From positions 1 through 50,537 of the forward strand of contig WQUF01000185.1 of NCBI GenBank assembly GCA_009785875.1: DNA of 50,537 nucleotides. The letters run 5' to 3'. The first letter of the stretch is position 1; each line of letters opens with the position of its first letter. Below the pieces are notes generated by a model. It worked only from the letters and a program-made list of their open reading frames with translations. It did no database searches and had not been told where the DNA came from. This document shows positions 801 through 49,050 of this stretch, piece by piece. The translations under genes and the position numbers were made by a program. The stretch is from Oscillospiraceae bacterium. Lineage in GTDB: Bacteria > Bacillota > Clostridia > Clostridiales > Clostridiaceae.

Positions 801-862
801 ATAAACACTTGAATATTTTAATCGATTATCAAATTAATACAGAGAATAACAAAAGCTTTTTG

Positions 863-877
863 AACTCACCGTGAGTT
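863..877. repeat. Dispersed palindrome copy 1, AACTCAC-C-GTGAGTT (perfect 19 bp over 861..879)
   Basis: Read directly: tGAACTCACcGTGAGTTCa. Intergenic, 165 nt upstream of the mobC start. Confidence 0.95.
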
Positions 878-1042
878 CATTTAGTAAGTAGAATTAATTT
901 AGCAATTACTGTTTTTCATATTGATAATGAGAGGTATATGCATGAGAATAGTAATTCTTTTATTTTATTTTTTTATAAATGGTTTTGAAATAATTAAACA
1001 TAAAGTTAAAGACAATTTATTAGATGCAAAGGAGTACATTAA

Positions 1043-1378
1043 GTGGCAGAGAAAGACAGAAAAAGAAGAAAGCAATTTCTTCTACATCTACTATATGAAG
1101 AATATGAAGTGCTTTGTGAAAAGGCAAGTGACGCTAAAATGACAAAATCAGAATTCGTGAGAAATGTAATTTTATATGGGGCTGCCAGAGGTAAAAGAAA
1201 TTTCAGTACAGAGGACGCAGTTAAAATTTGTTATGAGCTTAACAGAATTGGAAACAATATTAATCAAATTGCTTATCAAGCTAATAGAGATTCCTTTGTA
1301 AGCAGGAATGATATTGATACATTAAAAGACCAATATGAAAAAATTCTTGATTTGTTTAGCAGTTTTGCTATGACATAA
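1043..1378 (+). CDS. mobC: MobC-family relaxosome accessory protein
   Basis: GTG 1043 lies 8 nt after AAAGGAG. LNRIGNNINQIAYQAN matches the MobC signature (IG-x-N-x-NQIA). Directly precedes the relaxase gene. Confidence 0.85.
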   Translation: MAEKDRKRRKQFLLHLLYEEYEVLCEKASDAKMTKSEFVRNVILYGAARGKRNFSTEDAVKICYELNRIGNNINQIAYQANRDSFVSRNDIDTLKDQYEKILDLFSSFAMT

Positions 1379-1386
1379 GGAGACAT

Positions 1387-3351
1387 ATGGCTATAACAAA
1401 AATATTCAAAATTACTACAACTGTGTATCGTTCAATTAAATATGCTGAGAATGATAAATACGAAGTAAAAGAGATTAATGATAATCGAGAAGATGATATA
1501 AGTAGAAGTATTTCATATGCTGAAAGAGATAAAATAATTTCAAACGATAAATTCAGTTTAAATGTTTATAAAACATTTAATTCTTATAACATATGCACTA
1601 GTGGAAATGCTAATAAAATTTTTGAGAAGTGTAAGGAAGATGGATTAAGGCGAAACAAAAGCAAACAGAAATTAACTAAAGATGGTGAAATGATTATTGC
1701 ATATCATTTATTTCAGAGTTTTGAAACAAATGAAAAAATGCCAGCGCACGTCGCAAATGAAATAGGCTCAAAACTTGTTAAAGAAGTCTTTCCTAATTAT
1801 CCATGTGTCATATCGACGCACACGAACACCGATAACATACATAATCATATAATTATTTGCGCTTGGGATGTAAATGGGCGCAAATGGAATGACGACTTAA
1901 ATAGCAAAAGATTAATCAGGAGAGCATCGGACAAATTGTGCGAGGAGTATGGTCTGAATGTTCTTTATGAAACACAAGATATGAAGGTATGCAAATACAA
2001 AGATAAAAACGGAATCACAAGATTTTTTGAGCCAACTGACCGCAAAATAAATTTAGCAAAAGAGAGACAGCTAGATGAAATAATAGGAGACGTTAACGAC
2101 TATAGAAATACTAAGTCTTATGCAGATTATGTTGAAACAAAATTAAAAAGAGAAGATATAATAAAGAATGATATTGATAAGATTTTGCCAATTGTAATAA
2201 GCTATGATGATTTACTTGATAGGTTAAAAGATATAGGATATAAAATAAATGATAAGAAGAAAAATGGCGAGTGGTTGAAACATATAACATTTACGGCACC
2301 TTCCCATGAAAAAGGAGTAAGAGATAATAAAATAGGTGATGGGATTTTTTACTTACGAGAAAATTTAACTTCATATATCGATAAGCTATACCAAGACCGA
2401 AATATAAACAAACAAGAATTTGATGATGAATCTCTTAGAAAGAAATCTATTGAAATTGAAAAAGAAAAAATTGATAAAGAAGACAATCTAAGGCTTGAGG
2501 ATATTAAAAATTTAGAAAAAGATTATATAGAAGAATATAGATATGAGAATTTAGATGTTTCCAAAATAGATGAAGAAAAGAGAGTCGCTAAAGATACGGA
2601 TGGCAGTTTTTATTATGAGCCAAGAAGCAGTATTGAAAAAATTATTTTGCTTGATATAAAGAAAACAGATATCGAGGTTCGTGGATTAATAGACACTAGC
2701 GGTTTAAAGAGAATTATTGAAGAACAAAACAGAGCAAAAAAAGAGAGGAAAAAAGGTTCTTTATCTAAAAGAGAGGAAGAATTAATAAGACAAATTAGAG
2801 AGTCTTTTGAGAGTTTGCGTACGGCTGAGAACTATAAAATTAGAGATTATGAACATGTTAACTCTATTTATAGAGCTACGTATGAAAAATACATGGATAG
2901 CTTAAATCAGCTTAATCAAGCCGACCAAATAATAAGCCATTTCAAAACCGTACTGGAAGTCCCAAAGCAAGCATTTGAGCTTCAGGAAAAAGTAAATGCA
3001 AGTAAAAACAATATTGATTATATGTTTGAATCATATACAGATGACGTGTATACCTTAGAAAAAATGAAAAATACAATGTCCCAATATAAAATAGAAGATG
3101 AGGATGGGCGAGAAAAACTTAAAAATAAAATCTTAGACGCAGAAAAACGTGTTGCAGAATTAAAATCCCGTCTGTTTAGTTATGATGATGAAATACAGGA
3201 GCTTAAACAATGTATACGTGTCCTTGATAGAATCAGTGAAGAATCTGGTAATCACATTCCAATAAATAGTAATAATGAAATGAAATCAGAAGACCAACGC
3301 GATTCTACGATGATAAGCAATAGAAAACGAGATAGCAGAAACAAAGCATAA
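1387..3351 (+). CDS. Conjugative relaxase, MobA/VirD2 (MOBP/MOBQ-like) N-terminal domain with long coiled-coil C-terminus
   Basis: N-terminal Tyr region (TVYRSIKYAEND). STHTNTDNIHNHIII is the HxDxDxxHxH histidine-triad motif III, as in RP4 TraI. K/E-rich helical tail. Confidence 0.85.
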   Translation: MAITKIFKITTTVYRSIKYAENDKYEVKEINDNREDDISRSISYAERDKIISNDKFSLNVYKTFNSYNICTSGNANKIFEKCKEDGLRRNKSKQKLTKDGEMIIAYHLFQSFETNEKMPAHVANEIGSKLVKEVFPNYPCVISTHTNTDNIHNHIIICAWDVNGRKWNDDLNSKRLIRRASDKLCEEYGLNVLYETQDMKVCKYKDKNGITRFFEPTDRKINLAKERQLDEIIGDVNDYRNTKSYADYVETKLKREDIIKNDIDKILPIVISYDDLLDRLKDIGYKINDKKKNGEWLKHITFTAPSHEKGVRDNKIGDGIFYLRENLTSYIDKLYQDRNINKQEFDDESLRKKSIEIEKEKIDKEDNLRLEDIKNLEKDYIEEYRYENLDVSKIDEEKRVAKDTDGSFYYEPRSSIEKIILLDIKKTDIEVRGLIDTSGLKRIIEEQNRAKKERKKGSLSKREEELIRQIRESFESLRTAENYKIRDYEHVNSIYRATYEKYMDSLNQLNQADQIISHFKTVLEVPKQAFELQEKVNASKNNIDYMFESYTDDVYTLEKMKNTMSQYKIEDEDGREKLKNKILDAEKRVAELKSRLFSYDDEIQELKQCIRVLDRISEESGNHIPINSNNEMKSEDQRDSTMISNRKRDSRNKA

Positions 3352-3403
3352 AAATATCTTCATTTTAAACTAAATGATTTTTTATAGAATAATTATGATA
3401 TCC

Positions 3404-3434
3404 AAAGACAACTAAAAAAGGTTGTCTTTTTTTT
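3404..3434 (+). terminator. Rho-independent terminator after the relaxase gene
   Basis: AAAGACAAC (3404..3412) pairs with GTTGTCTTT (3421..3429). 8-nt loop, then a T-run to 3434. Confidence 0.6.
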
Positions 3435-5762: not shown

Positions 5763-5777
5763 AACTCACGGTGAGTT
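5763..5777. repeat. Dispersed palindrome copy 2, AACTCAC-G-GTGAGTT
   Basis: Read directly. Intergenic, 55 nt upstream of the T4CP start. Confidence 0.95.
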
Positions 5778-5832: not shown

Positions 5833-8604
5833 ATGGCAATTTTAGCTTTACTCCTTGTTATATATGTAACACTTCAAGGTTGTGTTGTTTACAAGAACCT
5901 TTCACCTCAACAAACATCTACTAATATATTTACTTCTCTTGATATTTATATAACGGGATTTGAAGAAAGAATAGCGAAGGAACCTTTTTCATTTGAAGTA
6001 ACTGAAAATACCACAAAAGCATTAGAAATTACGTGTTTAGCTTGGCTTATAGTCGTTTTGTACATATACAGTTCCAAAAGAAAATACATACGTGGTAAAG
6101 AGTATGGAACAGCTAGATGGGCAAGTTCAGGTGAACTTAGGAAATTACGTTCTGAATATTTGATGAATGAAGAAATCAAAAAAGTTCGTCAGTCACGTCT
6201 TGTTTTTATCAGATATTTTATGGAAAAAAAAGCATTAAAAAAATGCGATGATGATGGTAAAAAATTAAAATCGCTACTTTTAAGAGAATTAAACGAACAA
6301 GTAGAAGCATTAAAAGAAAACAATTCTTATGATGATGAGATTTATAGTGCAAAAAAGAAAGAAATAAATATGAAAGTCAAAGAGTTCGTTCATTTTGCAA
6401 AAATAGAATCATGGAAACCTTACGCAATTAAGGTGAAGTATGAAGAATCAGTAAAGGAATTAGAAGATAAATTAAAATATCGAATACTCAAGGAAAATGA
6501 AAAGGAAATTGAATTAGAAAAGGTTTATAAAGAATACAAAAAGTCACTTCACAACTTTTATTATGGTAAATCAAGAATCAGGTCTATTGAACAAAAATAT
6601 ATGAACTCCGATGAATACTTCACTCAAACAGAGAAAATAAGTATATACAATCTGCTCCTTAATAGAAACACACTAATAGTAGGCGGTAGTGGTAGTGGTA
6701 AAACTCGTGGTTATGGTATTCCTAACATATTGCAGACAAATAGCTCATTTGTGATAACAGACCCTAAGAGCGACATCCTTTTAAGATGTGGTTATTTTCT
6801 TTCTAAAGTGAAGGGATATAAGATACATGTTTTAAATTTAGATAATAAAGCAAAATCAGATGGTTACAATCCATTTGTTTATATACGACCAGAACGGGAA
6901 GGTTATGAAGAGCGAATTCTTATGCTCATCGAAACTATAATCATAAACACAGATGGTGGCGAAAAAAGAAATTCTAATGACCCGTTTTGGGACAAGGCTG
7001 AAAGATTATTTCTGCAATCTATATTTTTCTTTACATGTGATGGTTTTGAATTATCTGACCGCAATATGAATACCGTTTTAGCTTTAATCGCAATGCTACA
7101 AATCGCTGAGGAGGAAGACAAATATGATAGTGACCTAGATTATTATGCAAAAATATTTGAAAGAGAACATGGTTCTGAACATATAGGAGTGCAACAATTT
7201 AAGGAGTTCAGAAGCAAAGCAAGTGGAAAAACTGCAAAATCTATAGTCATATCAGCTATAGCCCGTTTAGCTCCTTTTAGAACAGAAGCAGTAAGAAGGA
7301 TATTCAGCTATGACACTATGGGACTTGACAGGTTAGGTGAGGAAAAGACTGCTATATTCATCGTTGTACCTCCCACAGATGGTACGTTCAACTTCATAGC
7401 AGGTATGGTATTTTCTCAAATGTTTCAAGAATTACAATACTCTGCTACGGAAATACATAAACGTGAAGGTCAAAAACTCCCAGTACCAGTAAAATTCATT
7501 CTAGATGAATTTGCTAACACTTGCACTATACCGAATTTTCTTAAAATACTAGCTTATGCAAGGTCTTTTGGTATCGGAATTTCAATAATTATCCAAAGCC
7601 TTGACCAGATAAAAAACATGTACAAAGAAGAGTACGGTATTCTTATCGATAACTGTGATACACTCCTTTATCTTGGTAACATAAAGCACAATGAAACACT
7701 GGAATATATGTCAAAATTACTAGGCAAGGGAACCTATGATAAAAAGACCACAGGGCGTACAAAAGGAAGGCAAGGGAGCTTTTCAACTAACTATGATGTA
7801 TTTGGTCGTGAATTACTAGACCCTTCTGAAATAATGAAAATGCCAAAGGAAAAATGCCTATTAATAGTGAGTGGGAAGAATCCTTTTTATAGCACTAAGT
7901 ATGATTTAACAAAACATCCAAATTATATGTTTACTTCGGATGCTAATGAATCTTATTTATTTGATTATAACCCACCGCAAAAACCCAAGGAGTTTCTTCC
8001 TAATAATACTGAAACTGAAAAAGTAATAACTCACGGTGAGTTCGCTAAATCACAAAAAGAATTGAAACCAAGCAAAAATACTTTAGTGGATTTTGAAGAA
8101 ATCAAGTTAAATCTTGATTACGCTAAAATAGCGAACAAGCTTGGTCGAAGTTTGCGCCATTATATACCTATTCCAGACAGTTTCTTTAATGTTAATGGAA
8201 CAGAAGAAAAACTTACAAAAGAAGAAAACGAAATAATTCTTGGATTTTTAACTGATAAGGAAACAAAAGATGAAGCAGATAGAATGTTTTCTCTGTCGTC
8301 AAAAACTATGGAGGTTATCGAAAAAGCAGAAGATGATGAGATAAAGATAGACACCAATGTTTATTCTATTGCTCATAAGATAACCACTATTGGTAGGTAT
8401 CTTGCGCCTATTCCAGATAAACTTTTTGGCGCAGAAGAACTACCTGTTCTTTCAGAAGAACAAAATACCATAATTTTTGAAGAGATTGAAAACAGCGAGT
8501 TAGAAAGCAATTTAAATGATATCAAAGAAATGTCGGGGGGTGTGATAAATGACTTAATTGATGATTTACCTATACCAATGAGAGATATAGTAATTCAGAC
8601 TTAG
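5833..8604 (+). CDS. virD4: Type IV coupling protein (VirD4/TraG family)
   Basis: Two N-terminal TM helices, GTARWA motif, Walker A GGSGSGKTRG, Walker B-like VKFILDEFAN, IIQSLDQ motif. Extra K/E-rich insert and a long C-terminal tail. Confidence 0.9.
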   Translation: MAILALLLVIYVTLQGCVVYKNLSPQQTSTNIFTSLDIYITGFEERIAKEPFSFEVTENTTKALEITCLAWLIVVLYIYSSKRKYIRGKEYGTARWASSGELRKLRSEYLMNEEIKKVRQSRLVFIRYFMEKKALKKCDDDGKKLKSLLLRELNEQVEALKENNSYDDEIYSAKKKEINMKVKEFVHFAKIESWKPYAIKVKYEESVKELEDKLKYRILKENEKEIELEKVYKEYKKSLHNFYYGKSRIRSIEQKYMNSDEYFTQTEKISIYNLLLNRNTLIVGGSGSGKTRGYGIPNILQTNSSFVITDPKSDILLRCGYFLSKVKGYKIHVLNLDNKAKSDGYNPFVYIRPEREGYEERILMLIETIIINTDGGEKRNSNDPFWDKAERLFLQSIFFFTCDGFELSDRNMNTVLALIAMLQIAEEEDKYDSDLDYYAKIFEREHGSEHIGVQQFKEFRSKASGKTAKSIVISAIARLAPFRTEAVRRIFSYDTMGLDRLGEEKTAIFIVVPPTDGTFNFIAGMVFSQMFQELQYSATEIHKREGQKLPVPVKFILDEFANTCTIPNFLKILAYARSFGIGISIIIQSLDQIKNMYKEEYGILIDNCDTLLYLGNIKHNETLEYMSKLLGKGTYDKKTTGRTKGRQGSFSTNYDVFGRELLDPSEIMKMPKEKCLLIVSGKNPFYSTKYDLTKHPNYMFTSDANESYLFDYNPPQKPKEFLPNNTETEKVITHGEFAKSQKELKPSKNTLVDFEEIKLNLDYAKIANKLGRSLRHYIPIPDSFFNVNGTEEKLTKEENEIILGFLTDKETKDEADRMFSLSSKTMEVIEKAEDDEIKIDTNVYSIAHKITTIGRYLAPIPDKLFGAEELPVLSEEQNTIIFEEIENSELESNLNDIKEMSGGVINDLIDDLPIPMRDIVIQT
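8028..8042. repeat. Dispersed palindrome copy 3, AACTCAC-G-GTGAGTT (inside virD4)
   Basis: Read directly. In frame it encodes I-T-H-G-E-F. Confidence 0.95.
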
Positions 8605-13100: not shown

Positions 13101-13927
13101 GAGCTGATGTCGGGTCGGGACTCATATTTGCAGAAAAGGTTACTGTCCCTTTCGTCGATAGGTTCCCACTGGACAGCTATTTATATCCTCTAATGTCTAC
13201 GAAATTTGGTGAAGATATGTCGAAGAAAGAAATAGACGAAAAAATTAGACAAATCATGTATGATGAACAAGAAAGTAATGATGTGAATTTTGACTCAGAA
13301 ACAGAAGTTCAAATGCAAGAAATAAAACTTAACTCTGATAATTTAAATTATCATTCAATACCAGAAGAAAATTTAAATAATCAATATGAAAGACCTTTGA
13401 TAGAGAGTTTTTCAAAGCAGCATATAAATACACATCAAGAGAATTTCTATTCAAATAGTAGAACTAATTATAATGTTCAACAACGGGAAAATGAAATAGC
13501 GTTGAATGAAAAAGAAGCGGAAGAAATTTTAAACAATCTATTAATGAATTATGAAGATAATTCATATTCAAATGAAAGCCTTAGATATAGGGCAGAACTG
13601 ATAGAAAATGTCAAAAAAAATCAATCAGTCTTAAACCCACAAAAACTCAATATATACGATAGTAATATGTATGAAGTTTATCCTAATGAAAATGAAACCA
13701 AAAAGCAAATTGAAAATTATAGTTTTGATAGATTTTATTCTAAGGATAATCCATTTCATCAAATCCTAAAGGATGATGTAACTTTTTTCGAAGAATTTGG
13801 TAAAGACATGCCTTCGAAGTCATCTATTAATCAAGATGAAATAAAACCTAAAGAAGAACACAGTTTTGATTTAAACAATAATTCAAAAATAGATGAGATA
13901 CTAAAAGAACTTAGACAATATAAATAG
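10109..13927 (+). CDS. virB4: PrgI(VirB3-like)::VirB4 ATPase fusion protein
   Basis: TTG 10109 lies 7 nt after AAAGGAGG (the ORF-track start 10088 lies over the RBS). IPDEIRKYKEKILFGLNARQL plus two TM helices is PrgI-like. Walker A GTSGSGKSF and Walker B YCYADEIH are VirB4/PrgJ-like. Confidence 0.85.
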   Translation: MISVRIPDEIRKYKEKILFGLNARQLVATVLTFLICVPLYYFGKKYISEDILSWLIIIIAVPLISIGFFKFNGMPMEKFIIEVLKFELLFPQKRRYKVENAFKEWERKADKELAPKSFLDKIKYKRYLEEASLEKILMMEKAEKRGDTDYNLKDFKPITVNKSWSHNPKKNNNKKDKKNKTKKKTVLQKKAEQIEKKKDKDPLYKLTNEEIKVMKKWNAKKLELKKKEINEEKKIVRKKSNVMKKRRNAKTTIPRTTQQTIPFLADYDEGLFEVRANKFSKLYKLKDINYRTSKEDEQVTIFVKLTEFLNYFSEDMNFAFVIDNRVISKDMQERKIFFKETGDKYDRHRKEYNGILRRQIMAGRNDIQIEKFLTITIDANSPIEALLRFHKIDDEIIANLRKIGSDAVVVSTTDRLSYYHDKFRKGKEGEFQIDYDFIKSQGISSKDYIAPTFFRFENKHFQIEDDFYRVMFLNNLPKSLSDEVLFDLCDNSFPVTTSISIQPVSQDKGLKIVQRQLTGILTNKMDAEKRAIRGGYSPESIQHSIIDAHKQAEELYDDMLNKSQKMFFVTITFMIHGSTLDELNENCKIIESKARKYTSQLQTLTMQQEEGFKITLPFGYTPQSVGVERTLTSESTAIFMPFSNQELFQPAGFFYGLNQISRNLVVINRTQMKTPSGFVLGTSGSGKSFQTKKEILQVILSDSNTGVLIIDPENEYGDFSRAFDGTVLKISADSNNYINPLDMGMDYGLDEDDPPDTPISVKKDKALKKKSDYIMSIIERMICNGNNADFSSITPVQKTIVDRCVSNCYRKYFESDFDTQYLPTLLDLQNELDKEKSTEEGRLLANGVEYYTRGSMNIFAHKTNVAIENRLVVFNVRDLGEQLRQIGLIIIFDFIWNRMINNKNRGVRTYCYADEIHVMFNSFYSANFLKQLYKRGRKYGLCITGLTQNVEDLLRSEQARGMIGNSDFIMMLNQNSEDLKILASMLNISETLMGFVKGADVGSGLIFAEKVTVPFVDRFPLDSYLYPLMSTKFGEDMSKKEIDEKIRQIMYDEQESNDVNFDSETEVQMQEIKLNSDNLNYHSIPEENLNNQYERPLIESFSKQHINTHQENFYSNSRTNYNVQQRENEIALNEKEAEEILNNLLMNYEDNSYSNESLRYRAELIENVKKNQSVLNPQKLNIYDSNMYEVYPNENETKKQIENYSFDRFYSKDNPFHQILKDDVTFFEEFGKDMPSKSSINQDEIKPKEEHSFDLNNNSKIDEILKELRQYK

Positions 13928-13995
13928 CCTGAAAGATACTTTGCAATGATTTAAGAAGTTATAGACTTAAAAAATAGCATGAAAGGAGGGATAAA

Positions 13996-16957: not shown

Positions 16958-16972
16958 AACTCACGGTGAGTT
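16958..16972. repeat. Dispersed palindrome copy 4, AACTCAC-G-GTGAGTT
   Basis: Read directly. Lies between stop 16953 and ATG 16975. Its right arm GGTGAG is the only SD-like sequence for the next gene. Confidence 0.95.
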
Positions 16973-18351: not shown

Positions 18352-18366
18352 AACTCACGGTGAGTT
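18352..18366. repeat. Dispersed palindrome copy 5, AACTCAC-G-GTGAGTT
   Basis: Read directly. 15 nt upstream of ATG 18382. Confidence 0.95.
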
Positions 18367-18381: not shown

Positions 18382-21300
18382 ATGAAAAAAATAAATTTAT
18401 ATATTTCAGGGATTTTAGTTGTTATTTTTTCCTGCATGATGTTTTATATACCGAGCTATGCTTCTTCTATAGAACCTGATTACATTATATCAGAGGAATA
18501 TCCAGCTACAGAGGAACAGCCAATGGAAGGGGAATGTGCACTAATTGAGGAACAGCCAGTTGTAGAGGAAAATCCAGCCGAAGATTACCAAACGACTGAT
18601 GAACAGCCAGTGGTTGAGTATCCGACAGAAGATTACAAAACAATAGATGAACAGCCAGCAGCTGAGTATCAAGCAGAAGACTACCAGACGGTTGATGAAC
18701 AGCCAGTGGTTGAATATCCGACAGAAGATTACAAAACAGTAGATGAACAGCAAGTAGTTGAATATCAAGCAGAAGACTACCAGATTGTTGATGAACAATC
18801 CATAGTTGATTATCAAGCAGAAGACTATCAAACGACTGATGAACAGCCAGCAGTTGAGTATCCAGTAGAAGACTACCAAACTATTGATGAACAGCCAGTG
18901 GTTGAGTATCCAGTAGAAGACTACCAAACTATTGATGAACAGCCAGTGATTGAGTATCCAGTAGAAGACTACCAAACTATTGATGAACAGCCAGTGATTG
19001 AGTATCCAGCAGAAGACTACCAAACTATTGATGAACAGCAATCAGCTGAGTATCCAGCAGAAAATTATAATTCAATAGAATATAAAGACAATACTGAGAA
19101 CGTAGATAAGGTTAAATCCTCTGATGATGAGGAAGCTAATGTTATTGACGATACTGATAACAAAGACAAAACCGAAAGTAAAAGTGATTTTAAATCTACC
19201 AATGATGAAGAAGAATCTGCTTTTATAGACGAAACATATAACGAAGATAAGACCGAGAGCGCAGATAAGATTAAATCCTCTGATGATGAAGAAGCTAATA
19301 CCATAGATGATACTGAAAACAAAGACAAGACCGAAAGTAAGAATGATTCTAAATCTACAGATGATGAAGAAGAATCTGCTGTTATAGACGAAACATATAA
19401 CGAAGATAAGAGTGATAGCGTTGATAAGGTTAAATCCTCTGACAATAAGGAAGCTAATGTTATTAACGAAACTGATAACAAAGACAAAACCGAAAGTAAA
19501 AGTGATTCTAAATCTACCAATGATGAAGAAGAATCTGCTGTTATAGACGAAACATATAACGAAGATAAGAGTGAGAGCGTTGATAAGGTTAAATCCTCTG
19601 ATGATGAGGAAACTAATGTTATTGACGATACTGATAACAAAGACAAAACCGAAAGTAAAAGTGATTCTAAATCTACCAATGATGAAGAAGAATCCGCTGT
19701 TATAGACGAAACATATAACGAAGATAAGAGTGAGAGCGTTGATAAGGTTAAATCCTCTGACGATGAGGAAGCTAATGTTATTGACGATACTGATAACAAA
19801 GACAAAATCGAAAGTAAAAGTGATTCTAAATCTACCAGTGATGAAGAAGAATCCACTGTTATAGACGAAATATATAACGAAGATAACACTGAAAGCACAG
19901 ACATATCATCATTTGATGAAGAAAATGTTTATAACATAGGTGGTACTATTATCGAAAATAACACTGATGTAAATGAAACTACAGAAGCAAAAGAACCTAT
20001 TTCAATTTCAATAGAAGAATCTCAATCTACAAATATACAGCCAGAAATAGGGACAACCCAAGTTATAGAGGATACTCAACAAGTGGATTGTTCTCAGACT
20101 CCAAGTATATTACCTAAAATTGAAATTGTACCACTAACAGATTCTCTTCCAGATTTAGTGACAATACAGACATTTCAATTAATAAAACCTGAACCATACA
20201 TAGATTACTCTCAGACTGAAAGTGCTACACCTGCAATTGAAACAGTACAACAAATAGACGCACAACCAACAATAGCTACAACACCAGTTGTAGAGGAAGC
20301 TCCTCTACTAACCATAGATACAATGCCAATTATTGAAGAATCTCCGAATGTAGATTATACACAACCGGATTTACCTATAACGAATGAGACACTTCCAGTT
20401 ATAGAGCAATCTGACACCATGGAAAAATCTACAGTAAATACTACAACTAATACAAAACCATCAGCTAAAAATGAGTCCACGAGCGTTGTTGAATCTTTGA
20501 ATAATGATGAATCTTTGAATCAAAACGAGTCTTCAACTAAAGAAGAACCTGCTAACCAAGATAATTCCTCAAAAATGATAGCTTCTGCTGCTACAAAAGA
20601 CGAATCACAGAAAGATGATGAAACTACTACCGAAGAAGTATCTAAAAACGATAATAAATCTTCAACGCTCACAGCCACGGCGACACCAGAAGTAGATAAT
20701 AATTCAACATCAAAGCCTGTTACATATAGTTTAATAGCTTTTAACATTACAGATAAAACAAAAGGTGCGTTTTCTGAAAATATTAAGGTAACATTAGAGG
20801 ATGTAAAGAGTGGAAAGACTTATGAGTTTTTTCTTGCGGATGATACAGGATATCTGAGCGTTGGAAATATCATCACGAATGCATCATATAAAATTACACT
20901 TGAATATCCAAACTCAAACAAGTATTTATTACAGAATGTAGATGGATCTCCAATTGATTTATTTAGCTCAACAGCAGATGGAAATTATTGTGATTGGGTT
21001 ATCGTGAATACAGATGATGTAAAACCAGTAGAAAATGATTTACCATCATCAGAAGTAAAAGCGGACGCTGATATTGCTTTTAATGACTTTTACAATGCAG
21101 TAAAGACAATGGACGATAATAAAGATTGGGATGGATTTTATAAAAGATATGATGTTTATGATAACATTGACTCAAAAAAATACGTCGATATAGTTGGCGG
21201 TAAAACTTCGGATTGGGTATCAAAGAAAGATTTTGACAAATTTTTGTATTATGAAACATATATAAAACTTGCTTCTTACATAAAACAATCAGACTATGAT

Positions 21301-22938: not shown

Positions 22939-22953
22939 AACTCACGGTGAGTT
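22939..22953. repeat. Dispersed palindrome copy 6, AACTCAC-G-GTGAGTT (17 bp perfect over 22938..22954)
   Basis: Read directly. Lies between the GntR-like gene and topB, about 30 nt upstream of GTG 22984. Confidence 0.95.
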
Positions 22954-31959: not shown

Positions 31960-31974
31960 AACTCACCGTGAGTT
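31960..31974. repeat. Dispersed palindrome copy 8, AACTCAC-C-GTGAGTT
   Basis: Read directly. 14 nt after stop 31945. Confidence 0.95.
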
Positions 31975-32207: not shown

Positions 32208-32236
32208 TTGACATTATATATACATTTTAGTATAAT
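32208..32236 (+). promoter_or_regulatory. Conserved promoter cassette P1
   Basis: TTGACA (32208..32213), 17-nt spacer TTATATATACATTTTAG, TATAAT (32231..32236). 39 nt before the PRTase-like gene. Confidence 0.65.
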
Positions 32237-33545: not shown

Positions 33546-33560
33546 AACTCACCGTGAGTT
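33546..33560. repeat. Dispersed palindrome copy 9, AACTCAC-C-GTGAGTT
   Basis: Read directly. Lies in the 680-bp intergenic region 33222..33900. Confidence 0.95.
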
Positions 33561-39014: not shown

Positions 39015-40823
39015 GTGTTAGGTACATATGGAACATCAGCTTTTAACAGTTTAGATGATTTTTCGAATCATAGAGATTATTTGAGTTTCCTATATGCAGA
39101 TTTAGAGGGATTTATCGCACGTTGCACTATCTCTCCATCCCATGATGAAAATGGTAAACCAGAATTTCATCAAACACTTTGGAAGAACGAAAGGCTCATC
39201 AATTATAATAGGTATTTTAATGTTTTAGATGTTTATACATCTATGAACAGTTTTTGGAAAGGCGAGCGCAAAGTATCGGAATTGAAACATTTGAATGCGT
39301 TGTTCATTGATATTGATTGCTACAAAATAGGGAAAACACAGGAACAAGTAATCTTAGAACTTGAAACTGAATATTTTGGAGAAAAATTGCCTGTACCTAC
39401 ATTTTTAATAAATTCTGGCAGGGGTCTTTATTTAATTTGGAAAATTGACGAAGATAGGAACGCATTGCCGAGATGGAAAAGCGTTCAACAGTATCTTTAC
39501 GAAACATGTTTGCCTTTTGGTGCTGACTCACAGGCTTTAGACGCAGCTAGAATTTTACGTGTGCCTTATTCCATAAACTCAAAAAATGGCGAAACAGTTT
39601 CAATATTATCATACAGTAATGTTCAGTATACACTCTATGAGATAATTCATGAATTTGATATTGAACCAGTTTCTATAAAAGATAAACCTAAGAATGAAGT
39701 ACATAAATTTGGTGAGGCTACAGAAAAACAACGCAAGTTCGCTAAGGATATATCTGAAAAGACTGGACTTCCCTTGCCTGACTTTAATTCCTTTGATAAA
39801 ACTTTTGATTTTATAAAAGATAATTTAACTCACGGTGAGTTCAAAAGTGATGAAAAGAAGAATAACATTTTATTATTTCCACCTATTAGTATTGAAAATA
39901 CGGCTGAGATTAAGTCTTTACTTGAAGGACGTTGCAATGACCTTCGCCTGCTATTTTCCATGAGAAAAGGCGTAGATTGCTGTCGTGAGTATGGTTTGTT
40001 TTTATACCGTCTATGGCTTTGTCAAATTACAAAAGATTTTGATTATGCACTTATAAAAACCCTAGAATTTAATTCAAGTTTAGATTGCCCGTTTACTGAA
40101 AACTATGTAATATCACATACAAAAAGTGCAGAAGAAATTATCAAAAAGGGCAGTACATATAAATACAAAACAGAAACTCTTATTGAAGTTCTGAAAATTA
40201 CACAAGCTGAAATGAAATATTTACATTACATATGCGATTCTCCTATATCGCAAAAAGAAAAAAAATCAAAGAAAAATCATAGAAATTATAAGAATAGATT
40301 AAACCGTCAAGGCAAACTAGAAAAAAAAGAGCAAATAAATGAACGTCGTCAAACTATTATTAATATGAGAAACGAAAAAAAGACAAAAGAAGAAATATGC
40401 GATTTTTTAAATATATCATTTCGTACCTATGAAAGAGATTTAGTTGCCATATTTGCAAATGGTGTTTTAAATGTAGTTAAAAACACTGTTGAAACTATCG
40501 TGGATAATATAAGTGATACCCTCGAAACTATTTCCAATAAGGTTAATGGTCTTATTAATGATACTATTGATACTTTAAAATCATCAGAATTCAATTTACA
40601 TAATAATGATAATGAAAACGAGAAAATCGTCAATGATAATTTAACAGACAGTATGAATTTAGTTTCTAAAGAAAATGAAATAATCATTAATAAATCTTCT
40701 AATAACGTTGAAAACGGTGAAGAATTATCGGATAGCACGGATTTAGTCATTGCGACAAAAAATCAGCCCCTATATTGTAAGAAGAACGCTAGTTCCGCTC
40801 TGCTTAGTGAAAATACAGGTTAA
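39015..40823 (+). CDS. Replication initiator with primase-polymerase (AEP)-like N-terminal domain and C-terminal HTH
   Basis: GTG after AGGAGGG. LNALFIDIDC (acidic metal motif), NSGRGLYLIWKI and ARILRVPYSINSK resemble AEP/prim-pol motifs. HTH-like KTKEEICDFLNISFRTYERDL. N/D/E-rich tail. Confidence 0.55.
   Translation: MLGTYGTSAFNSLDDFSNHRDYLSFLYADLEGFIARCTISPSHDENGKPEFHQTLWKNERLINYNRYFNVLDVYTSMNSFWKGERKVSELKHLNALFIDIDCYKIGKTQEQVILELETEYFGEKLPVPTFLINSGRGLYLIWKIDEDRNALPRWKSVQQYLYETCLPFGADSQALDAARILRVPYSINSKNGETVSILSYSNVQYTLYEIIHEFDIEPVSIKDKPKNEVHKFGEATEKQRKFAKDISEKTGLPLPDFNSFDKTFDFIKDNLTHGEFKSDEKKNNILLFPPISIENTAEIKSLLEGRCNDLRLLFSMRKGVDCCREYGLFLYRLWLCQITKDFDYALIKTLEFNSSLDCPFTENYVISHTKSAEEIIKKGSTYKYKTETLIEVLKITQAEMKYLHYICDSPISQKEKKSKKNHRNYKNRLNRQGKLEKKEQINERRQTIINMRNEKKTKEEICDFLNISFRTYERDLVAIFANGVLNVVKNTVETIVDNISDTLETISNKVNGLINDTIDTLKSSEFNLHNNDNENEKIVNDNLTDSMNLVSKENEIIINKSSNNVENGEELSDSTDLVIATKNQPLYCKKNASSALLSENTG
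39827..39841. repeat. Dispersed palindrome copy 10, AACTCAC-G-GTGAGTT (inside rep)
   Basis: Read directly. In frame it encodes L-T-H-G-E-F. Confidence 0.95.
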
Positions 40824-42906: not shown

Positions 42907-43075
42907 ACTAAACACCTCCGATATAAAAATTATTGACATGTTGAACAACCATTAATCAAAAAGAAAGGAATATATCTCTATCTCAATATTATTTAATGTG
43001 AAGCCATCCGTCATTCTTGGCAGAACCCTTTTTTTGTGCTTTTTATGTAACATCGAGGTCGATAAAATTCAAAAG

Positions 43076-43090
43076 AACTCACGGTGAGTT
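43076..43090. repeat. Dispersed palindrome copy 11, AACTCAC-G-GTGAGTT (25 bp perfect over 43071..43095)
   Basis: AAAAGAACTCACgGTGAGTTCTTTT followed by more T. 31 nt upstream of the -35 of P2. Confidence 0.95.
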
Positions 43091-43121
43091 CTTTTTTTAA
43101 TATCTCTAAATAAAAAAATAC

Positions 43122-43150
43122 TTGACGTTTAAAATACAAAATAGTATAAT
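43122..43150 (+). promoter_or_regulatory. Conserved promoter cassette P2
   Basis: TTGACG (43122..43127), 17-nt spacer TTTAAAATACAAAATAG, TATAAT (43145..43150). Confidence 0.6.
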
Positions 43151-43656: not shown

Positions 43657-43671
43657 AACTCACTGTGAGTT
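43657..43671. repeat. Dispersed palindrome copy 12, variant AACTCAC-T-GTGAGTT (33 bp perfect over 43648..43680)
   Basis: ATAATTTTTAACTCACtGTGAGTTAAAAATTAT checked base by base. 13 nt upstream of the -35 of P3. Confidence 0.95.
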
Positions 43672-43693: not shown

Positions 43694-43722
43694 TTGATAT
43701 TAAATATACATTTTAGTATAAT
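43694..43722 (+). promoter_or_regulatory. Conserved promoter cassette P3
   Basis: TTGATA (43694..43699), 17-nt spacer TTAAATATACATTTTAG, TATAAT (43717..43722). Confidence 0.6.
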
Positions 43723-44111: not shown

Positions 44112-44432
44112 GTGATAATTACAGTGGATAAAATAAAAGTATTAGTAGTTGAACCTGAAAAAGAGCCATATTTGAAGGAAATAGATAATGAAATAAAGAC
44201 AATGCAGAAATTAGTAAATGGATATATTGAAACAGTCTTTTTAACCAGTACAGCAGTATTAGTGTGTAATGATGAAGGCATGATTAATGGCTCAAAAAGA
44301 AATAGAAGTTATGACTTTGGTTTTATATATGGAACATTCTTTATAGCTGGTATTGATGAACCTGATTTTGCTTCTCTCAACGATTTGGATATAAAAAAGT
44401 ATACTAAAAAATTTGGATTAATAAACACTTGA
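44112..44432 (+). CDS. DUF3846-like protein
   Basis: KIKVLVVEPEKEPYLKEIDNEIKTMQKLVNGYIETV ... VLVCNDEGMINGSKRNR ... IYGTFFIAG matches the DUF3846 pattern common on conjugative elements. The start is GTG 44112 or GTG 44124. Confidence 0.6.
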   Translation: MIITVDKIKVLVVEPEKEPYLKEIDNEIKTMQKLVNGYIETVFLTSTAVLVCNDEGMINGSKRNRSYDFGFIYGTFFIAGIDEPDFASLNDLDIKKYTKKFGLINT

Positions 44433-44457
44433 CATATTACATACATTTTAGTAAAAT
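44429..44457 (+). promoter_or_regulatory. Conserved promoter cassette P4 (upstream of parA)
   Basis: TTGACA (44429..44434, overlapping the stop of the previous gene), 17-nt spacer TATTACATACATTTTAG, TAAAAT (44452..44457). Confidence 0.55.
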
Positions 44458-44549: not shown

Positions 44550-45401
44550 TTGGTTAGTAAATTGGTTAATAAAGTAGCGTTCGTAAACTCTAAAGGTGGT
44601 TGCGGAAAAACGACATCAATTTTCCACATAGCAGGAGTTCTTTCAAAAGATAAAGATAATAAGGATAAAGCAAAGGGGAGAGTTTTAGTAGTCGATTTAG
44701 ACCCACAGTGTAATACAACAGATACACTGTTAATGAACGTAGATAAAAAACAAAAACCAGATGAAACTGTACTTGATTTTATTACAGGAACTTCAAGTGC
44801 GGAAGAAGCGACTGTTCAGTGTCTATTTCAGACGAGAGGAAACGCTAATGCAAAATATTTCGGGGTCGATTGTATGCAGGGTGATGTATTACTTAGTAAA
44901 GAATCGCTTTTAAAGTCTATTGACCCTGAAAAGCTCCAAAAAAATTTTGAGTTATTCTTATCAGAGCAAGGATACTCATGGGTTTTAATCGATATGCCAC
45001 CTAATAGTTTGACTTTAAATGAGATTTGCTTTTCTTATTTGGCAAATCATGTGATTGTACCGTTTTCATCTGATATATTTTCTGTTCTTGGTTACTCTAA
45101 ATTAATGACTACAATTGACAAAGAAAGAGCTAATAATCCTTCACTTAATGTACTTGGCGTTTTTTTAGCAAGATATATGGCTAATTGCAAAGTTGATACT
45201 TATATACGAGATGAACTTATTAAGAATTTTGACACATTTATAGACATTCAAATTCCTCTTAGTTCAGATTTGCGAGAGAGCATTTTTTGTGGTAGACCCA
45301 TAAGCTACTACAAAGAATTCTCTAAAGGCAGAATCGCATTTGAAAGTTTAGTAAGTGAAATAAAGAAACGCATAAATAAATTTAATAAGGGAATTTCATA
45401 A
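44550..45401 (+). CDS. parA: ParA/Soj-family partition ATPase
   Basis: TTG start after GAAGTGAGG. Deviant Walker A NSKGGCGKTTS. VLVVDLDPQ. Walker B-like WVLIDMPP. Confidence 0.85.
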   Translation: MVSKLVNKVAFVNSKGGCGKTTSIFHIAGVLSKDKDNKDKAKGRVLVVDLDPQCNTTDTLLMNVDKKQKPDETVLDFITGTSSAEEATVQCLFQTRGNANAKYFGVDCMQGDVLLSKESLLKSIDPEKLQKNFELFLSEQGYSWVLIDMPPNSLTLNEICFSYLANHVIVPFSSDIFSVLGYSKLMTTIDKERANNPSLNVLGVFLARYMANCKVDTYIRDELIKNFDTFIDIQIPLSSDLRESIFCGRPISYYKEFSKGRIAFESLVSEIKKRINKFNKGIS

Positions 45402-45458: not shown

Positions 45459-46778
45459 ATGGCTAGAAATTTTAGTAAAGCTGGAAGCGTATTTGCAGAG
45501 GTTGCAAGAGAAAGCTCGGAGAAAGCTAATGTTCAGACTATAAAAATGATACAGAATGAGAACATTATAGATTATCCTAATAATCGAGAAGATATAAACG
45601 ATACGCTTGATATAGAAAATAGCATTAAACAGATTGGCTTTAGTGACCCACTAGAAGTTACAGATTTTGGAATGACAAATGGGAAATTCATGATAGTAAG
45701 TGGTCATAGGCGAAGGAGTGCAGGGGTGAAGACTGGTATGAGCCTTTTCCCCTGTATAGTTAAGGATTTTAAAAGCGATAATGATGTTTTCAATTATGTT
45801 CTATTATCGAACAGTCAAAGGGATAGTGAGAAAGACCCTTTGTTATTTGCCAATCGTTACTTGTTACATGAAGCATATTTAGACAAAATTGGTTTTAAAG
45901 GCAGTAAACAAGAAGAAATAGCAAAGAGGCTCGGTATATCGACACATCATGCCGCCCGTTACGCAGCAGTCAATAGGTTAATATCTCCTATAAAAGACAT
46001 GATTCGTGATGGAGATGTAGGAATGTCAAACGTTCTACCAATTGCGAAGCACACACCAGAAGAACAAGTTGAAATTTTAGAAATACTAAAGGAATGCATT
46101 TCATCAGGAAAGGATTTGACAAGAGAAACTGTTAAGACGCTAGTTGAGGGTTACAGGGATGGCAAAAAGACATTTAATGAAATAATGAAGCCAGAAGTAA
46201 AAGATAAGGAAAAATCAGAAATCACATTTATTAATGAAAATGAAGCTGAGAGTAGGGATCCTTCAATAAGGGAAGAAGAATCAAAAGGTTTAAACATTGA
46301 TTCACAAAGTAATGATATTGTGTCCGAAAACAAGAAGGAAAAAAGCACAGAAGCACATGAAGATGAAATTCAAAACGAAGACAGAATTACAGAATCGACA
46401 GATGAAATTAGCTTTTATGATGAATCAATTGAAGCAAAAGAAGATGAAAGCCAAGATAATATAGAAAATGAAAATGATATAAATAACGTTGAGGACAGAG
46501 AGAGTTCCGGAGCAGACGACAATATTCATGATATTAATAATGATAAAAATTTAAAGGCAACAAAAGATATTCGAAAGTATTTAGACAGATTGAATGCTCT
46601 TTTAAACACAACTTATGAATTCTCAGATAAAGAAGAAGCGGAGAATACATTTGATAATATGAAAGAAACACTATCGATGATTATTGATGAAATGTATAAT
46701 ATTTCTCGTGCCTTTAATCTGACTGATGTTTTTATAAATGCAGTTTCAGAAATGCAGGAAAAGCTAAAATCTTATTAA
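45459..46778 (+). CDS. parB: ParB/KorB-like protein with long acidic linker
   Basis: ParB N-domain GFSDPLEVT ... MIVSGHRRRSAG (arginine patch). HTH QEEIAKRLGISTHHAARYAAV. About 130 aa of D/E/N/S-rich low-complexity linker, then a C-terminal helical domain. Confidence 0.8.
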   Translation: MARNFSKAGSVFAEVARESSEKANVQTIKMIQNENIIDYPNNREDINDTLDIENSIKQIGFSDPLEVTDFGMTNGKFMIVSGHRRRSAGVKTGMSLFPCIVKDFKSDNDVFNYVLLSNSQRDSEKDPLLFANRYLLHEAYLDKIGFKGSKQEEIAKRLGISTHHAARYAAVNRLISPIKDMIRDGDVGMSNVLPIAKHTPEEQVEILEILKECISSGKDLTRETVKTLVEGYRDGKKTFNEIMKPEVKDKEKSEITFINENEAESRDPSIREEESKGLNIDSQSNDIVSENKKEKSTEAHEDEIQNEDRITESTDEISFYDESIEAKEDESQDNIENENDINNVEDRESSGADDNIHDINNDKNLKATKDIRKYLDRLNALLNTTYEFSDKEEAENTFDNMKETLSMIIDEMYNISRAFNLTDVFINAVSEMQEKLKSY

Positions 46779-46830: not shown

Positions 46831-46835
46831 AGTAC

Positions 46836-46904
46836 ATATGCTATAAGCGACTTATAGCATATTGATAAAGAAAAATACGAATTTTAATGCAAATTTTAAT
46901 GCAA
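46836..46904. promoter_or_regulatory. 12-bp inverted repeat plus tandem 12-mer direct repeat between parB and the tandem-RHH gene
   Basis: ATATGCTATAAG (46836..46847) and CTTATAGCATAT (46851..46862). ATTTTAATGCAA x2 (46881..46892 and 46893..46904). Confidence 0.5.
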
Positions 46905-46952
46905 TTAAGGCAATATTTAGTTAAACTAAATAAAGCTGAAAAGGAGGAAGTA

Positions 46953-47366
46953 ATGACAACAACAAATAATGATAGCAAGTCTAGTTATTTAAATGTAAGG
47001 GTTACCAGTGACTTAAAAAAAAGATTTGATGTATTTTGCAAAGGTATTGGGTCTACTGGAAGCAAAACTGTTATGTTATTCGCAAGATATTGTATATATT
47101 CGGATAAGGCGTTTTCATTTAATTTCTCGAATTATGACATTGCTCAAGACAACTCAGAACCTATTATAGTTGGATTTCGTTTAACAAATGGATTGCGAGA
47201 GAAGTTCGCAAAATTTTGCGATAAATTTGAATTACCTATGGCTGTATTTATACGTGATTTCATGATTTCATGCATAACAAAAAATAAACTTCCATTTGAC
47301 ATAAATGAAATAGCCAAAATGAAGTCATCACTCACAATAAGCAAAGAAAAAAAAGAGAATGTGTAA
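46953..47366 (+). CDS. Tandem ribbon-helix-helix-like protein
   Basis: ATG 46953 after AAAGGAGGAAG. Two RHH-like units (YLNVRVTSDLKKRFDVFCK... and IVGFRLTNGLREKFAKFCD...). Confidence 0.5.
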   Translation: MTTTNNDSKSSYLNVRVTSDLKKRFDVFCKGIGSTGSKTVMLFARYCIYSDKAFSFNFSNYDIAQDNSEPIIVGFRLTNGLREKFAKFCDKFELPMAVFIRDFMISCITKNKLPFDINEIAKMKSSLTISKEKKENV

Positions 47367-47374
47367 AGCCATTT

Positions 47375-47389
47375 AACTCACCGTGAGTT
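47375..47389. repeat. Dispersed palindrome copy 13, AACTCAC-C-GTGAGTT
   Basis: Read directly. 8 nt after stop 47366. Confidence 0.95.
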
Positions 47390-47653: not shown

Positions 47654-47755
47654 ATGCAAAACTTAAATGAAATTTTAGGGGCTTATATTCTTCTTTTTAT
47701 TGCTGGTGTATGTGTTGGAAGAATAATAAAGTTCATTAAAAAAAATATGAAATAG
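47654..47755 (+). CDS. 33-aa hydrophobic peptide, Fst/Ldr-like type I toxin candidate (not in the ORF track)
   Basis: ATG 47654 lies 6 nt after GGAGGT. MQNLNEILGAYILLFIAGVCVGRIIKFIKKNMK has one TM helix and a basic tail. Confidence 0.5.
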   Translation: MQNLNEILGAYILLFIAGVCVGRIIKFIKKNMK

Positions 47756-47827
47756 AAAGATGTTAAACTCTAATAATTTACTTATTAGCTGTTTATGCTT
47801 TGTCATGTAGTAAAAGGTGGTATTAAG

Positions 47828-48817
47828 ATGGTTAGTGAGAAATATGTATGGAAAGCCATTGATTTTGTTATCGATTATGCAAAAGAACAAGGTTTGAAGT
47901 ATCGACGTGGGGATTTTAAAGATATAAGCTTTTGCAATAAAACATATGATAATTGTGTTTTTAATACATATCAAAATTGCGGATATAAAAATACTAAAGC
48001 TATACAAATCTGTTTGCGTTATGACTTTGAACGCTGTGGAAGAAGCTTAAAGCAAGCTAAAGATAAATTTTTAAGCTACATGTATGTAAGGGTAAAAAAC
48101 GATGGAATATATTTTATATTTACTTACAGAGAACTAGATTTACTCATATTGAAAGAAAACGGCGAAAATACAGAAGATAAAATCGAAAAGATTATTAGTA
48201 AAGTCACAAAATTGCTTGAACTTGCGGATTTAGAAAAGAACAATTCTGAAAAAGAGGCTATTGCAGCAAGTTTAAAAGCACAGGAACTACTTGTAAAGTA
48301 TAACCTTGATTTATGTGATATACAAGGTGATAAAAAGGAAAATATAGAAGAAATTATTGCAGATGTACCATCAGGATTCAAATGGAAATACAGTCTTGCT
48401 GAGGTTGTCGCCAGAAGTTATCGTTGCCGATTTTATATCATTGGTTCAAATAACATTGTTTTTTACGGTTATCGTTCAGATAGTTTAATTGCACGAAGGG
48501 TATTTATCTATCTATTTAATGTCGGAAATAGACTTGCAAATGCATACGTAAAAGTTATGTCTATGAAACTCTATAATACAAATGGTATATACAATAGCTT
48601 TTGTGCAGGATATGTTAAGGGTATAAATACAGAATTGTCTAGAAACTCAACAGCCCTTGCGATAATAGTGCCGTCAGAAGTTAATGAGAATTTTGAAGAA
48701 TTTTCTAAAAATTTTAGAAACAAAGGTAATTTTTTAAATGTAATTGATGACACTGCATATGAGAATGGGATAGTCGAAGGAAAGCGAGCGATGAATGCTC
48801 AATATTTAGAGGCATAA
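47828..48817 (+). CDS. DUF2786-domain protein
   Basis: ATG 47828 after AAAGGTGG. KIISKVTKLLELADLEKNNSEKEAIAASLKAQELLVKYNLD matches the DUF2786 signature. The conserved C-terminal part (WKYSLAEVVARSYRCRFY) follows. Confidence 0.6.
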   Translation: MVSEKYVWKAIDFVIDYAKEQGLKYRRGDFKDISFCNKTYDNCVFNTYQNCGYKNTKAIQICLRYDFERCGRSLKQAKDKFLSYMYVRVKNDGIYFIFTYRELDLLILKENGENTEDKIEKIISKVTKLLELADLEKNNSEKEAIAASLKAQELLVKYNLDLCDIQGDKKENIEEIIADVPSGFKWKYSLAEVVARSYRCRFYIIGSNNIVFYGYRSDSLIARRVFIYLFNVGNRLANAYVKVMSMKLYNTNGIYNSFCAGYVKGINTELSRNSTALAIIVPSEVNENFEEFSKNFRNKGNFLNVIDDTAYENGIVEGKRAMNAQYLEA

Positions 48818-48897
48818 AAATTAAATCATATTACATGGAATAAATACAACAGCTTCAAAGTTGAATAATTAAAGTCACAAATCACAAATCACAAAGC

Positions 48898-48931
48898 AAA
48901 GAAAGAGCCATATAAAAACGGCTCTTTCTTT
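48898..48931. terminator. Bidirectional terminator between convergent genes
   Basis: AAAGAAAGAGCC (48898..48909) pairs with GGCTCTTTCTTT (48920..48931). 10-nt loop, A/T runs on both sides. Confidence 0.65.
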
Positions 48932-49035
48932 AAGGTATGAGTCAATAAAATGTATCTAGTTAAATTATTATCTATAATATTTTTTTTATTCAACACTTTA
49001 TATAAGTGAATACTTATTTTTTGTATTCTAATTTT

Positions 49036-49050
49036 AACTCACCGTGAGTT
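49036..49050. repeat. Dispersed palindrome copy 14, AACTCAC-C-GTGAGTT
   Basis: Read directly. Intergenic, next to the hairpin at 49059..49090. Confidence 0.95.

Follow-up and report, generated by a model that had tools for sequence, protein, structure and literature searches.

Palindromes dispersed over a conjugative plasmid of an Oscillospiraceae bacterium as probable parS-type sites of the plasmid's own ParB

The stretch of DNA analysed here (the window) comprises the 50,537 nucleotides of contig WQUF01000185.1 from the Oscillospiraceae bacterium assembly GCA_009785875.1, a metagenomic contig that carries a conjugative plasmid backbone with a parA-parB partition gene pair and over which 14 copies of a 15-bp palindrome, AACTCAC-N-GTGAGTT (AACTCACNGTGAGTT), are scattered. 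Based on the comparative, covariation and promoter evidence presented here, we propose that these palindromes are probably parS-type sites and operators for the plasmid's own ParB, laid out as a dispersed grid that would combine partition with promoter control in the manner of the KorB-OB system of plasmid RK2. An initial annotation, made from the letters of the window, had read the copies as a plasmid-wide operator/centromere network analogous to KorB-OB. The comparison of related plasmids supports such a reading, as the motif travels with parAB, tandem arrays of it occur beside parAB, and a subset of the sites stands at a fixed distance from promoters. The family-wide specificity code and the promoter module described below go beyond what that annotation saw.

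A search of the window for AACTCAC-N-GTGAGTT returned exactly 14 matches, and the same 14 when up to two mismatches were allowed, against 0.00 and 0.18 matches, respectively, expected from dinucleotide shuffles; the copies located by the initial annotation, and its judgement that they are not due to chance, are thus confirmed. Isolated half-sites are rare (only 3-4 in the window). The centre base is C in six copies, G in seven and T in one (43657), and since a C-centred copy read on the other strand is a G-centred one, the two represent one type of site in two orientations. While 85% of the window is coding, 11 of the 14 copies lie outside coding sequences (CDSs; p=2e-7); the other three fall within the CDSs of the type IV coupling protein (T4CP), the polyvalent protein and Rep, and share the frame T-H-G/R-E-F, again as first annotated. 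The sites recur every few kb, mostly in short intergenic gaps, and do not form one clustered centromere. The description of the copies as lying round the whole replicon holds insofar as they are dispersed over the window, but the window is not proven to be a whole replicon: its ends do not overlap, and a 64.6-kb metagenome contig, part of which matches it at 99.95% identity, extends past the window end and carries one further (15th) copy.

The individual sites occupy diverse positions. Site 1 (863-877, C-centred) lies upstream of the NikA/MobC-relaxase genes, and site 2 (5763-5777) is intergenic, with the T4CP start 55 nt further on. The intragenic copies are site 3 (8028-8042) in the T4CP CDS (frame I-T-H-G-E-F), site 7 (26315-26329) in the polyvalent protein CDS (S-T-H-R-E-F) and site 10 (39827-39841) in a variable linker of the Rep CDS. 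Site 4 (16958-16972) is found 4 nt past the stop of the CHAP-hydrolase gene and overlaps the start region of the next gene. Site 5 (18352-18366) precedes by 15 nt the ATG (at 18382) of a repeat-rich surface protein, and site 6 (22939-22953), between the genes for GntR paralogue 1 and a topoisomerase, precedes the topoisomerase start by 30 nt; both distances agree with the initial annotation. This annotation had also placed three copies just after stop codons, which is correct for site 8 (31960-31974, 14 nt past a stop) and site 13 (47375-47389, 8 nt past the stop of the tandem ribbon-helix-helix (RHH) gene that follows parB), but not for site 14 (49036-49050), which is 218 nt past the upstream plus-strand gene and, on its other side, 49 nt beyond the stop of the GntR paralogue 2 gene, the two genes being convergent. 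Site 8 has its centre 241 nt upstream of a promoter module at 32208, and the intergenic site 9 (33546-33560) lies about 240 nt upstream of an 11/12 promoter at 33801. Sites 11 (43076-43090) and 12 (43657-43671, T-centred) stand immediately before two promoters, which are considered below. Site 11 is also embedded in a 25-bp perfect palindrome (AAAAGAACTCACGGTGAGTTCTTTT, 43071-43095) followed by a T-run, and this stretch, immediately before the promoter, is scored as a hairpin resembling a bidirectional terminator.

Megablast of the rep-par region against PLSDB gave no match, and relatives were found only at the protein level. More than 500 ParB homologues are present in metagenomes; the loci around 9 ParB relatives from genomes and 80 from metagenomes were fetched, with flanks limited to 10 kb on each side. 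Among the PLSDB plasmids, only pOBV01 of Oscillibacter valericigenes Sjm18-20 is closely related; this complete circular plasmid of 60.6 kb and 43% GC is syntenic with the window, and its ParB is 42% identical to that of the window. pOBV01 contains 26 exact copies of CTCAC-S-GTGAG (one per 2.3 kb), 19 of them not fully inside a CDS (p=2e-12), and most stand 2-14 nt behind a stop codon, with the next start 15-56 nt further on. These 26 sites are more evenly spaced than random positions (coefficient of variation (CV) 0.45 versus 0.95, P<1e-4); the largest gap between neighbours is 4.6 kb (P=3e-4), so that every point of the plasmid is within about 2.3 kb of a site. The window sites show the same tendency to evenness (CV 0.61, P=0.054). 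The regularity in pOBV01 suggests selection for coverage of the whole element. The Rep intragenic site is common to the window and pOBV01, at homologous positions, and to no other locus of the three compared (absent from L006, L008 and L013).

Across the loci of the ParB relatives, the invariant core of the motif is TCAC-N-GTGA, with 295 sites in 859 kb against 9.3 expected, and multiple copies in about 60 loci. Compared with canonical parS (TGTTTCAC|GTGAAACA), this core has the same inner half-sites but one more base pair at its centre. Relative to gene orientation, its centre base is G in 139 sites, C in 137, T in 12 and A in 7, i.e. G or C in 94%; the lack of strand bias, despite loci in which the genes share one orientation, points to two-fold symmetric recognition of duplex DNA. 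As a negative control, viral contigs totalling 570 kb, in which the ParB-like genes are only distantly related, yielded six core matches, which is the chance level, and none of the 11-bp form. By contrast with the core, the outer half-site bases vary by lineage: AAC in the window, GTCC most commonly, and ACTC, CCTC, xCCC, GTAA, TCCA, xTTA or ACAG elsewhere. The related motif-bearing plasmids belong to different genera and range from 29 to 60% GC, and their flanks follow their own ParB rather than taxonomy. The ParA-ParB gene pair is kept in nearly all related loci. Two loci (L011 and L058) have only ParA and ParB in common with the window and two others (L007 and L012) one further homologue each, yet these loci carry 4-11 sites. 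Loci without the core were searched for other palindromes, and only single CCAC-type variants were found.

The arrangement of the sites around parAB differs between relatives. A site is present 48-180 bp upstream of parA in 7 of the 9 genome loci, and close pairs of sites surround parAB in L058. Tandem arrays also occur: four 25-bp units (ACCGTTATCACGGTGAGTACAAGAT) lie 59 bp upstream of parA in L009 and L044 (L009:1-100), and at least 11 sites with a period of about 32 bp lie beside parAB in L045 (10744-11085). These three arrays are at contig ends, have the look of classical centromeres and belong to relatives in which dispersed copies were not seen. Other short contigs (L010/L062, L060, L070) show two classes of site (GTCC..GGAC and ACTC..GAGT) next to each other with only one ParB, and hybrid sites made of two different halves (e.g. 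GTTA-TCAC-G-GTGA-GGAC) recur just 3' of parB (L006, L014-16, L018, L020, L026). Such mixed classes and hybrids may stem from cross-talk between plasmids or point to a second specificity.

The variation of the outer bases made it possible to ask which protein residues change with them. In 39 non-redundant loci, the columns of ParB (residues 1-245) were compared with the half-site bases by Fisher tests of consensus versus non-consensus states, and 283 columns of ParA served as a control with the same phylogeny; raw mutual information was dropped in favour of these tests, being dominated by hypervariable ParA columns. For base -7 (T or other), the best ParB column is 166 (D versus F/A/E; table 32/0/1/6; p=2e-6), followed by column 151 (p=9e-6), whereas the next-best column of either ParB or ParA reaches p ~1e-2. 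For base -5, the best column is 163 (Q versus P/A/R/H; p=5e-4), and the sole locus of the G class has R163. None of the 283 ParA columns comes close for the half-site bases. The non-consensus lineages each have consensus-type nearest relatives, and the changes have therefore arisen in at least five separate lineages. The ParB of the window aligns through its helix-turn-helix (HTH) to Noc, Spo0J and Caulobacter ParB (6T1F, E=2e-7), and in the latter alignment columns 151, 163 and 166 correspond to Q162, S174 and A177. In the Caulobacter protein, Q162 contacts parS, while S174 and A177 belong to the recognition helix, where they are flanked by R173 and N178, residues involved in contact and specificity (PMC7383237). 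In the window, the HTH region (residues 147-208; 45897-46082, plus strand) has Q151, H163 and A166 at the covarying positions. Its recognition helix T-H-H-A-A, in combination with Q151, is unique among 120 homologues, and the AAC flank is likewise unique.

This code was also used in the forward direction, homologues being chosen by their HTH residues before their DNA was inspected. Two R163 proteins turned out to be accompanied by GTCAC-S-GTGAC sites, the predicted G standing at -5. One F166 protein belongs to a different subfamily, sharing 58% identity with the F166 proteins seen before and having D166 proteins as its nearest relatives; its half-site, ACTC-TCAC, is the one found with the earlier F166 proteins. 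Because of the HTH covariation, of these forward predictions and of site-rich loci without detectable GntR and RHH homologues, we infer that the palindromes of the window are almost certainly binding sites of the plasmid's own ParB. The ParB-like protein encoded at 45459-46778 was one of several candidate binders put forward by the initial annotation, and is now singled out by its linkage to the motif as well as by the code.

A link to promoters is apparent at the family level. Sequences resembling promoters are concentrated 30-39 nt downstream from the centres of the sites, and a second family-wide repeat consists of a strong, near-perfect promoter module, TTGACA-N3-TATGTACA-N4-TGC-TATAAT, found in 86 copies, all on the gene strand and 12 of them in pOBV01. 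A site lies within 120 nt upstream of 40 of these 86 modules, with a sharp mode at 36 nt (site centre to -35), and the intervening sequence is diverged. A repeat of 400 bp or more is also present four times in pOBV01 (L001 ~1700-2230, 6580-7110 and 13680-14210; L002 ~1390-1920), each copy with one site, a promoter module 36 nt later and a gene about 110 bp downstream. The window has five modules with a spacer variant of its own (TTGAYR..ATACA..TAG-TAWAAT). Two of them, TTGACG-17-TATAAT at 43122-43150 (plus strand; conserved spacer ..AATACA..TAG) and TTGATA-17-TATAAT at 43694-43722 (plus strand; conserved spacer), conform to the family pattern, with the centres of sites 11 and 12 located 39 and 30 nt upstream of the respective -35; the latter module heads an operon running into parA-parB. 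The initial annotation had noted that these two copies end 31 and 22 nt before the -35 boxes TTGACG and TTGATA, and this is borne out, both promoters matching the consensus at 11 of 12 positions. The three other modules are directly upstream of parA (44429-44457, plus strand), at 32208-32236 (plus strand, 12/12 consensus, window spacer variant) and at 50183-50211 (minus strand, 12/12), where the promoter serves the minus-strand p196-GntR2 genes. The spacer itself holds a conserved palindrome, TGTACA in the relatives and ATACA in the window. This palindrome may serve as the operator of a second regulator, for which a GntR paralogue and the tandem RHH protein are candidates.

Taken together, these features suggest how the system might function. 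The site assigned to the window ParB is AACTCACSGTGAGTT, and one HTH of a ParB dimer would read each half-site. The inner TCAC would be recognized as in canonical parS, the extra central G:C pair separating the two halves, and the outer bases (AAC here) would act as a lineage-specific discriminator read by residues 163 and 166 of the recognition helix together with residue 151. ParB would nucleate at every site, from which a clamp of the cytidine triphosphate (CTP) type probably spreads locally, so that the whole plasmid would be loaded and would present a plasmid-wide partition complex to ParA. Sites located about 30-40 nt upstream of promoter modules would in addition control transcription, that of the par operon included, probably jointly with a second protein bound to the promoter spacer. 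The sites, their conservation in the family, the HTH covariation, the even spacing in pOBV01 and the coupling to promoters are observed, whereas physical binding, CTP-dependent sliding and the sign of the regulation are inferred. A more speculative extension, to which we give limited credence, is that an evenly spaced, replicon-wide grid of ParB-CTP clamps coats the plasmid as a silencing, insulation or protection layer as well as forming its centromere, and that the residue code (163 for -5; 166 and 151 for -6 and -7) lets co-resident plasmids keep orthogonal grids.

Several observations weigh against this model of a ParB-bound grid with a dual role. Dispersal is not universal, some relatives (L006, L093, L042) having few or no sites near parAB. 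The window ParB scores below the curated cut-offs for HTH_ParB (Pfam; 19.3 vs 22.6 bits) and TIGR00180 (46 vs 58 bits), which identifies it as a divergent member. The covariation tests treat related sequences as independent, and ParA is only a partial control for shared ancestry. The strict form of the forward prediction, that proteins lacking D166 would be paired with a base other than T at -7, failed: N166 and S166 proteins keep T at -7 and define a new TTGC class with the change at -6. In the covariation set, one E166 lineage (L071) keeps T at -7. Lastly, for most sites of the window no promoter is recognisable nearby, three of the five modules there have no site within 120 nt, and a site centred near -71 lies clear of the core promoter, which leaves room for outcomes other than repression.

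The last of these points bear directly on the most serious alternative, namely that the sites are ParB-bound centromeres and nothing else, redundant parS copies being spread so as to make the plasmid one partition complex or condensate, and their proximity to promoters being incidental since both are confined to intergenic DNA. All the evidence for ParB binding applies to this explanation too, as does the even spacing in pOBV01, and it agrees with the location of most window sites in short intra-operon gaps that have no promoter and with the three modules lacking a nearby site. We nevertheless consider it rather unlikely, because the 36-nt mode, which is sharp over diverged sequence in many plasmids, and the presence of a site ahead of the par operon promoter in most relatives would be difficult to account for if the sites had no function at promoters. 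Far less probable is a scheme in which the palindrome is the operator of a small GntR/YtrA-like paralogue or of the tandem RHH protein, with ParB binding elsewhere. GntR-family and RHH proteins commonly bind short palindromes, copies 6 and 14 are close to the 3' ends of the two GntR genes, and copy 13 follows the end of the RHH gene by 8 nt; the initial annotation had for its part listed both kinds of protein as candidate binders. Against this proposal stand loci of 15-21 kb that contain 5-11 sites and no detectable GntR or RHH homologue (L058, L068, L065, L050). GntR homologues were detected in only 3 of the 80 metagenome loci, most of which have sites; neither GntR gene of the window has a site upstream; and the outer bases vary with the ParB HTH, predictions made from ParB alone having mostly held.

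An action of the palindrome as a single-stranded hairpin, be it a 3' stabiliser or terminator of mRNA, a mobile palindrome of the repetitive extragenic (REP) type, or a priming or single-stranded promoter signal on the strand transferred in conjugation, would agree with sites just past stop codons in co-directional operons, with arms that change together between lineages so that pairing is preserved, and with site 11, where the stem is extended to 11 bp and followed by a T-run. It appears very improbable all the same: the RNA hairpin is predicted at only -3.3 kcal/mol for the window 15-mer and -2.3 for pOBV01, the inner 9 bp keep one and the same sequence in all lineages instead of changing in a compensatory way, the centre base is as often G as C in co-oriented genes (139 vs 137), and the covariation is with an HTH that binds double-stranded DNA. 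The specific case of a REP- or terminator-like extragenic hairpin was rejected for the weak energy, the invariant core sequence and the symmetric centre base. Finally, a repeat of the host genome at large that merely occurs on the plasmid too, for instance an uptake sequence or a host-factor target, can be given practically no weight: the core is shared by related plasmids of different genera and of 29-60% GC, the flanks track the plasmid's own ParB and not taxonomy, and unrelated mobile DNA contains the motif at chance-level counts. The dual role in partition and promoter control remains our preferred explanation.

The genes of the window are those of a conjugative plasmid backbone, encoding NikA/MobC, a MobA/VirD2 relaxase, T4CP, a PrgI-VirB4 fusion, a CHAP hydrolase and a topoisomerase, together with a polyvalent ArdC-type protein, Rep, ParA, ParB, a tandem RHH protein and two small GntR paralogues. 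The gene for the Walker-type partition ATPase ParA (44550-45401, plus strand) is directly upstream of parB (45459-46778, plus strand), the product of which, the putative palindrome binder, comprises a ParB_N domain of the CTPase type, the HTH, an acidic linker and a C-terminal helical region. ParB_N is matched at 26.9 bits (Pfam cut-off 26.3). The residues G82-H83-R84-R85-R86-x-A88, N118 and R121 are invariant across 16 family members; the P-motif of the family is accordingly GHRRR and not the canonical GERRxR, Glu being replaced by His. The linker (residues ~255-385) is unusually long, strongly acidic and of low complexity, and is longer than in relatives. The N-terminus, MAKNFGK, looks from its sequence like a ParA-interaction peptide rather than a membrane helix of the Noc type.

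The tandem RHH gene (RelB/DinJ-like; 46887-47366, plus strand) directly follows parB in more than 30 related loci, parA-parB-rhh forming a conserved triad there. Its product is possibly a partner regulator rather than a binder of the 15-bp palindrome. GntR paralogues 1 (22481-22879, plus strand) and 2 (49100-49426, minus strand) are both small and YtrA/PmtR-like, and the former is a possible binder of the promoter-spacer palindrome. pOBV01 has a single small GntR gene, at the same place before the topoisomerase gene. The surface protein downstream of site 5 (1142 aa) contains long in-frame tandem repeats at 18544-19896 (a 48-bp unit x10.8 and a 159-bp unit x5.1), and it is, in its C-terminal part, a paralogue of the 418-aa protein encoded before it. 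Past the end of the window, the sister contig (L003:15053-21320) carries a Y-family polymerase gene, a resolvase gene and Fic/VbhA toxin-antitoxin genes. A variable or repeated junction is suggested by the fact that the window and a 9-kb contig share this end point.

If our interpretation is right, this would be the first KorB-like, plasmid-wide network of ParB sites outside Proteobacteria. It would be carried by a large and so far undescribed plasmid family of gut Clostridia, with conjugative as well as smaller members and hundreds of metagenomic ParB homologues. This family offers a natural ParB-DNA specificity code that is open to point-mutation tests and, in the clustered and dispersed centromere layouts used by the same protein, a contrast within one family. 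It could also provide a second system in which to find out if clamps of the ParB-CTP type generally regulate mobile elements over long distances, and its orthogonal site variants could serve as parts for DNA labelling or plasmid engineering in Firmicutes.

A full-text search for the 11-mers of the motif retrieved only unrelated primer sequences, and no description of the present system was found in the literature on KorB in Firmicutes; several known systems are nevertheless comparable. The closest sequence relatives of the window ParB are ParB and Noc structures (E ~1e-7). The inner half-site TCAC is identical to that of the chromosomal ParB(Spo0J)-parS system, and Noc with its binding sites (NBS) likewise involves many dispersed sites of a ParB-type protein. 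The specificity switch between ParB and Noc is set by a few HTH residues (PMC7383237). In contrast to parS and NBS, the present sites have an extra central base pair within an odd palindrome of 15-17 bp, are plasmid-borne with 14-26 copies on 50-60 kb, and have their discriminator at -5 to -8, presumably read by columns 151, 163 and 166. Among Gram-positive plasmids, omega of pSM19035 is both a centromere-binding protein and a global regulator, with sites upstream of several promoters (PMC2441792). It differs in being an RHH protein that recognizes heptad repeats at three promoter regions, with no CTPase domain, palindrome or plasmid-wide grid. The linear plasmid-prophage N15 has a sopC-like centromere split into four dispersed inverted repeats, some of them near promoters; these are only four sites, bound by a SopB-type protein in a Gram-negative host, and an even grid is not known from this element.

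The greatest resemblance in organization is to KorB-OB, with KorA/TrbA, of the Gram-negative IncP-1 plasmid RK2. In both cases, a ParB-family protein has a partner ParA; the site is an odd palindrome with a central S in a dozen or more copies; the copies are promoter-proximal, distal and intragenic; and KorB links partition with global control, a link that we propose here by analogy. A possible second operator inside the promoters recalls the KorB-OB(-KorA) arrangement. The P-motif of KorB, GARRYR, also departs from the canonical Glu (PMC11790492). The likeness does not extend to ancestry: no KorB domain was among the Pfam matches of the window ParB, and KorB (PDB 8QA8) aligns to it at E=0.0076, more weakly than chromosomal ParB does (2e-7), which characterizes it, as far as sequence tells, as a divergent canonical-type ParB and not a KorB orthologue. 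Whereas KorB recognizes TTTAGC half-sites and its operators abut the -35, the half-site here is the parS-like TCAC, the promoter-linked sites are centred near -71, the spacing is markedly even, and the plasmids belong to the phylum Bacillota.

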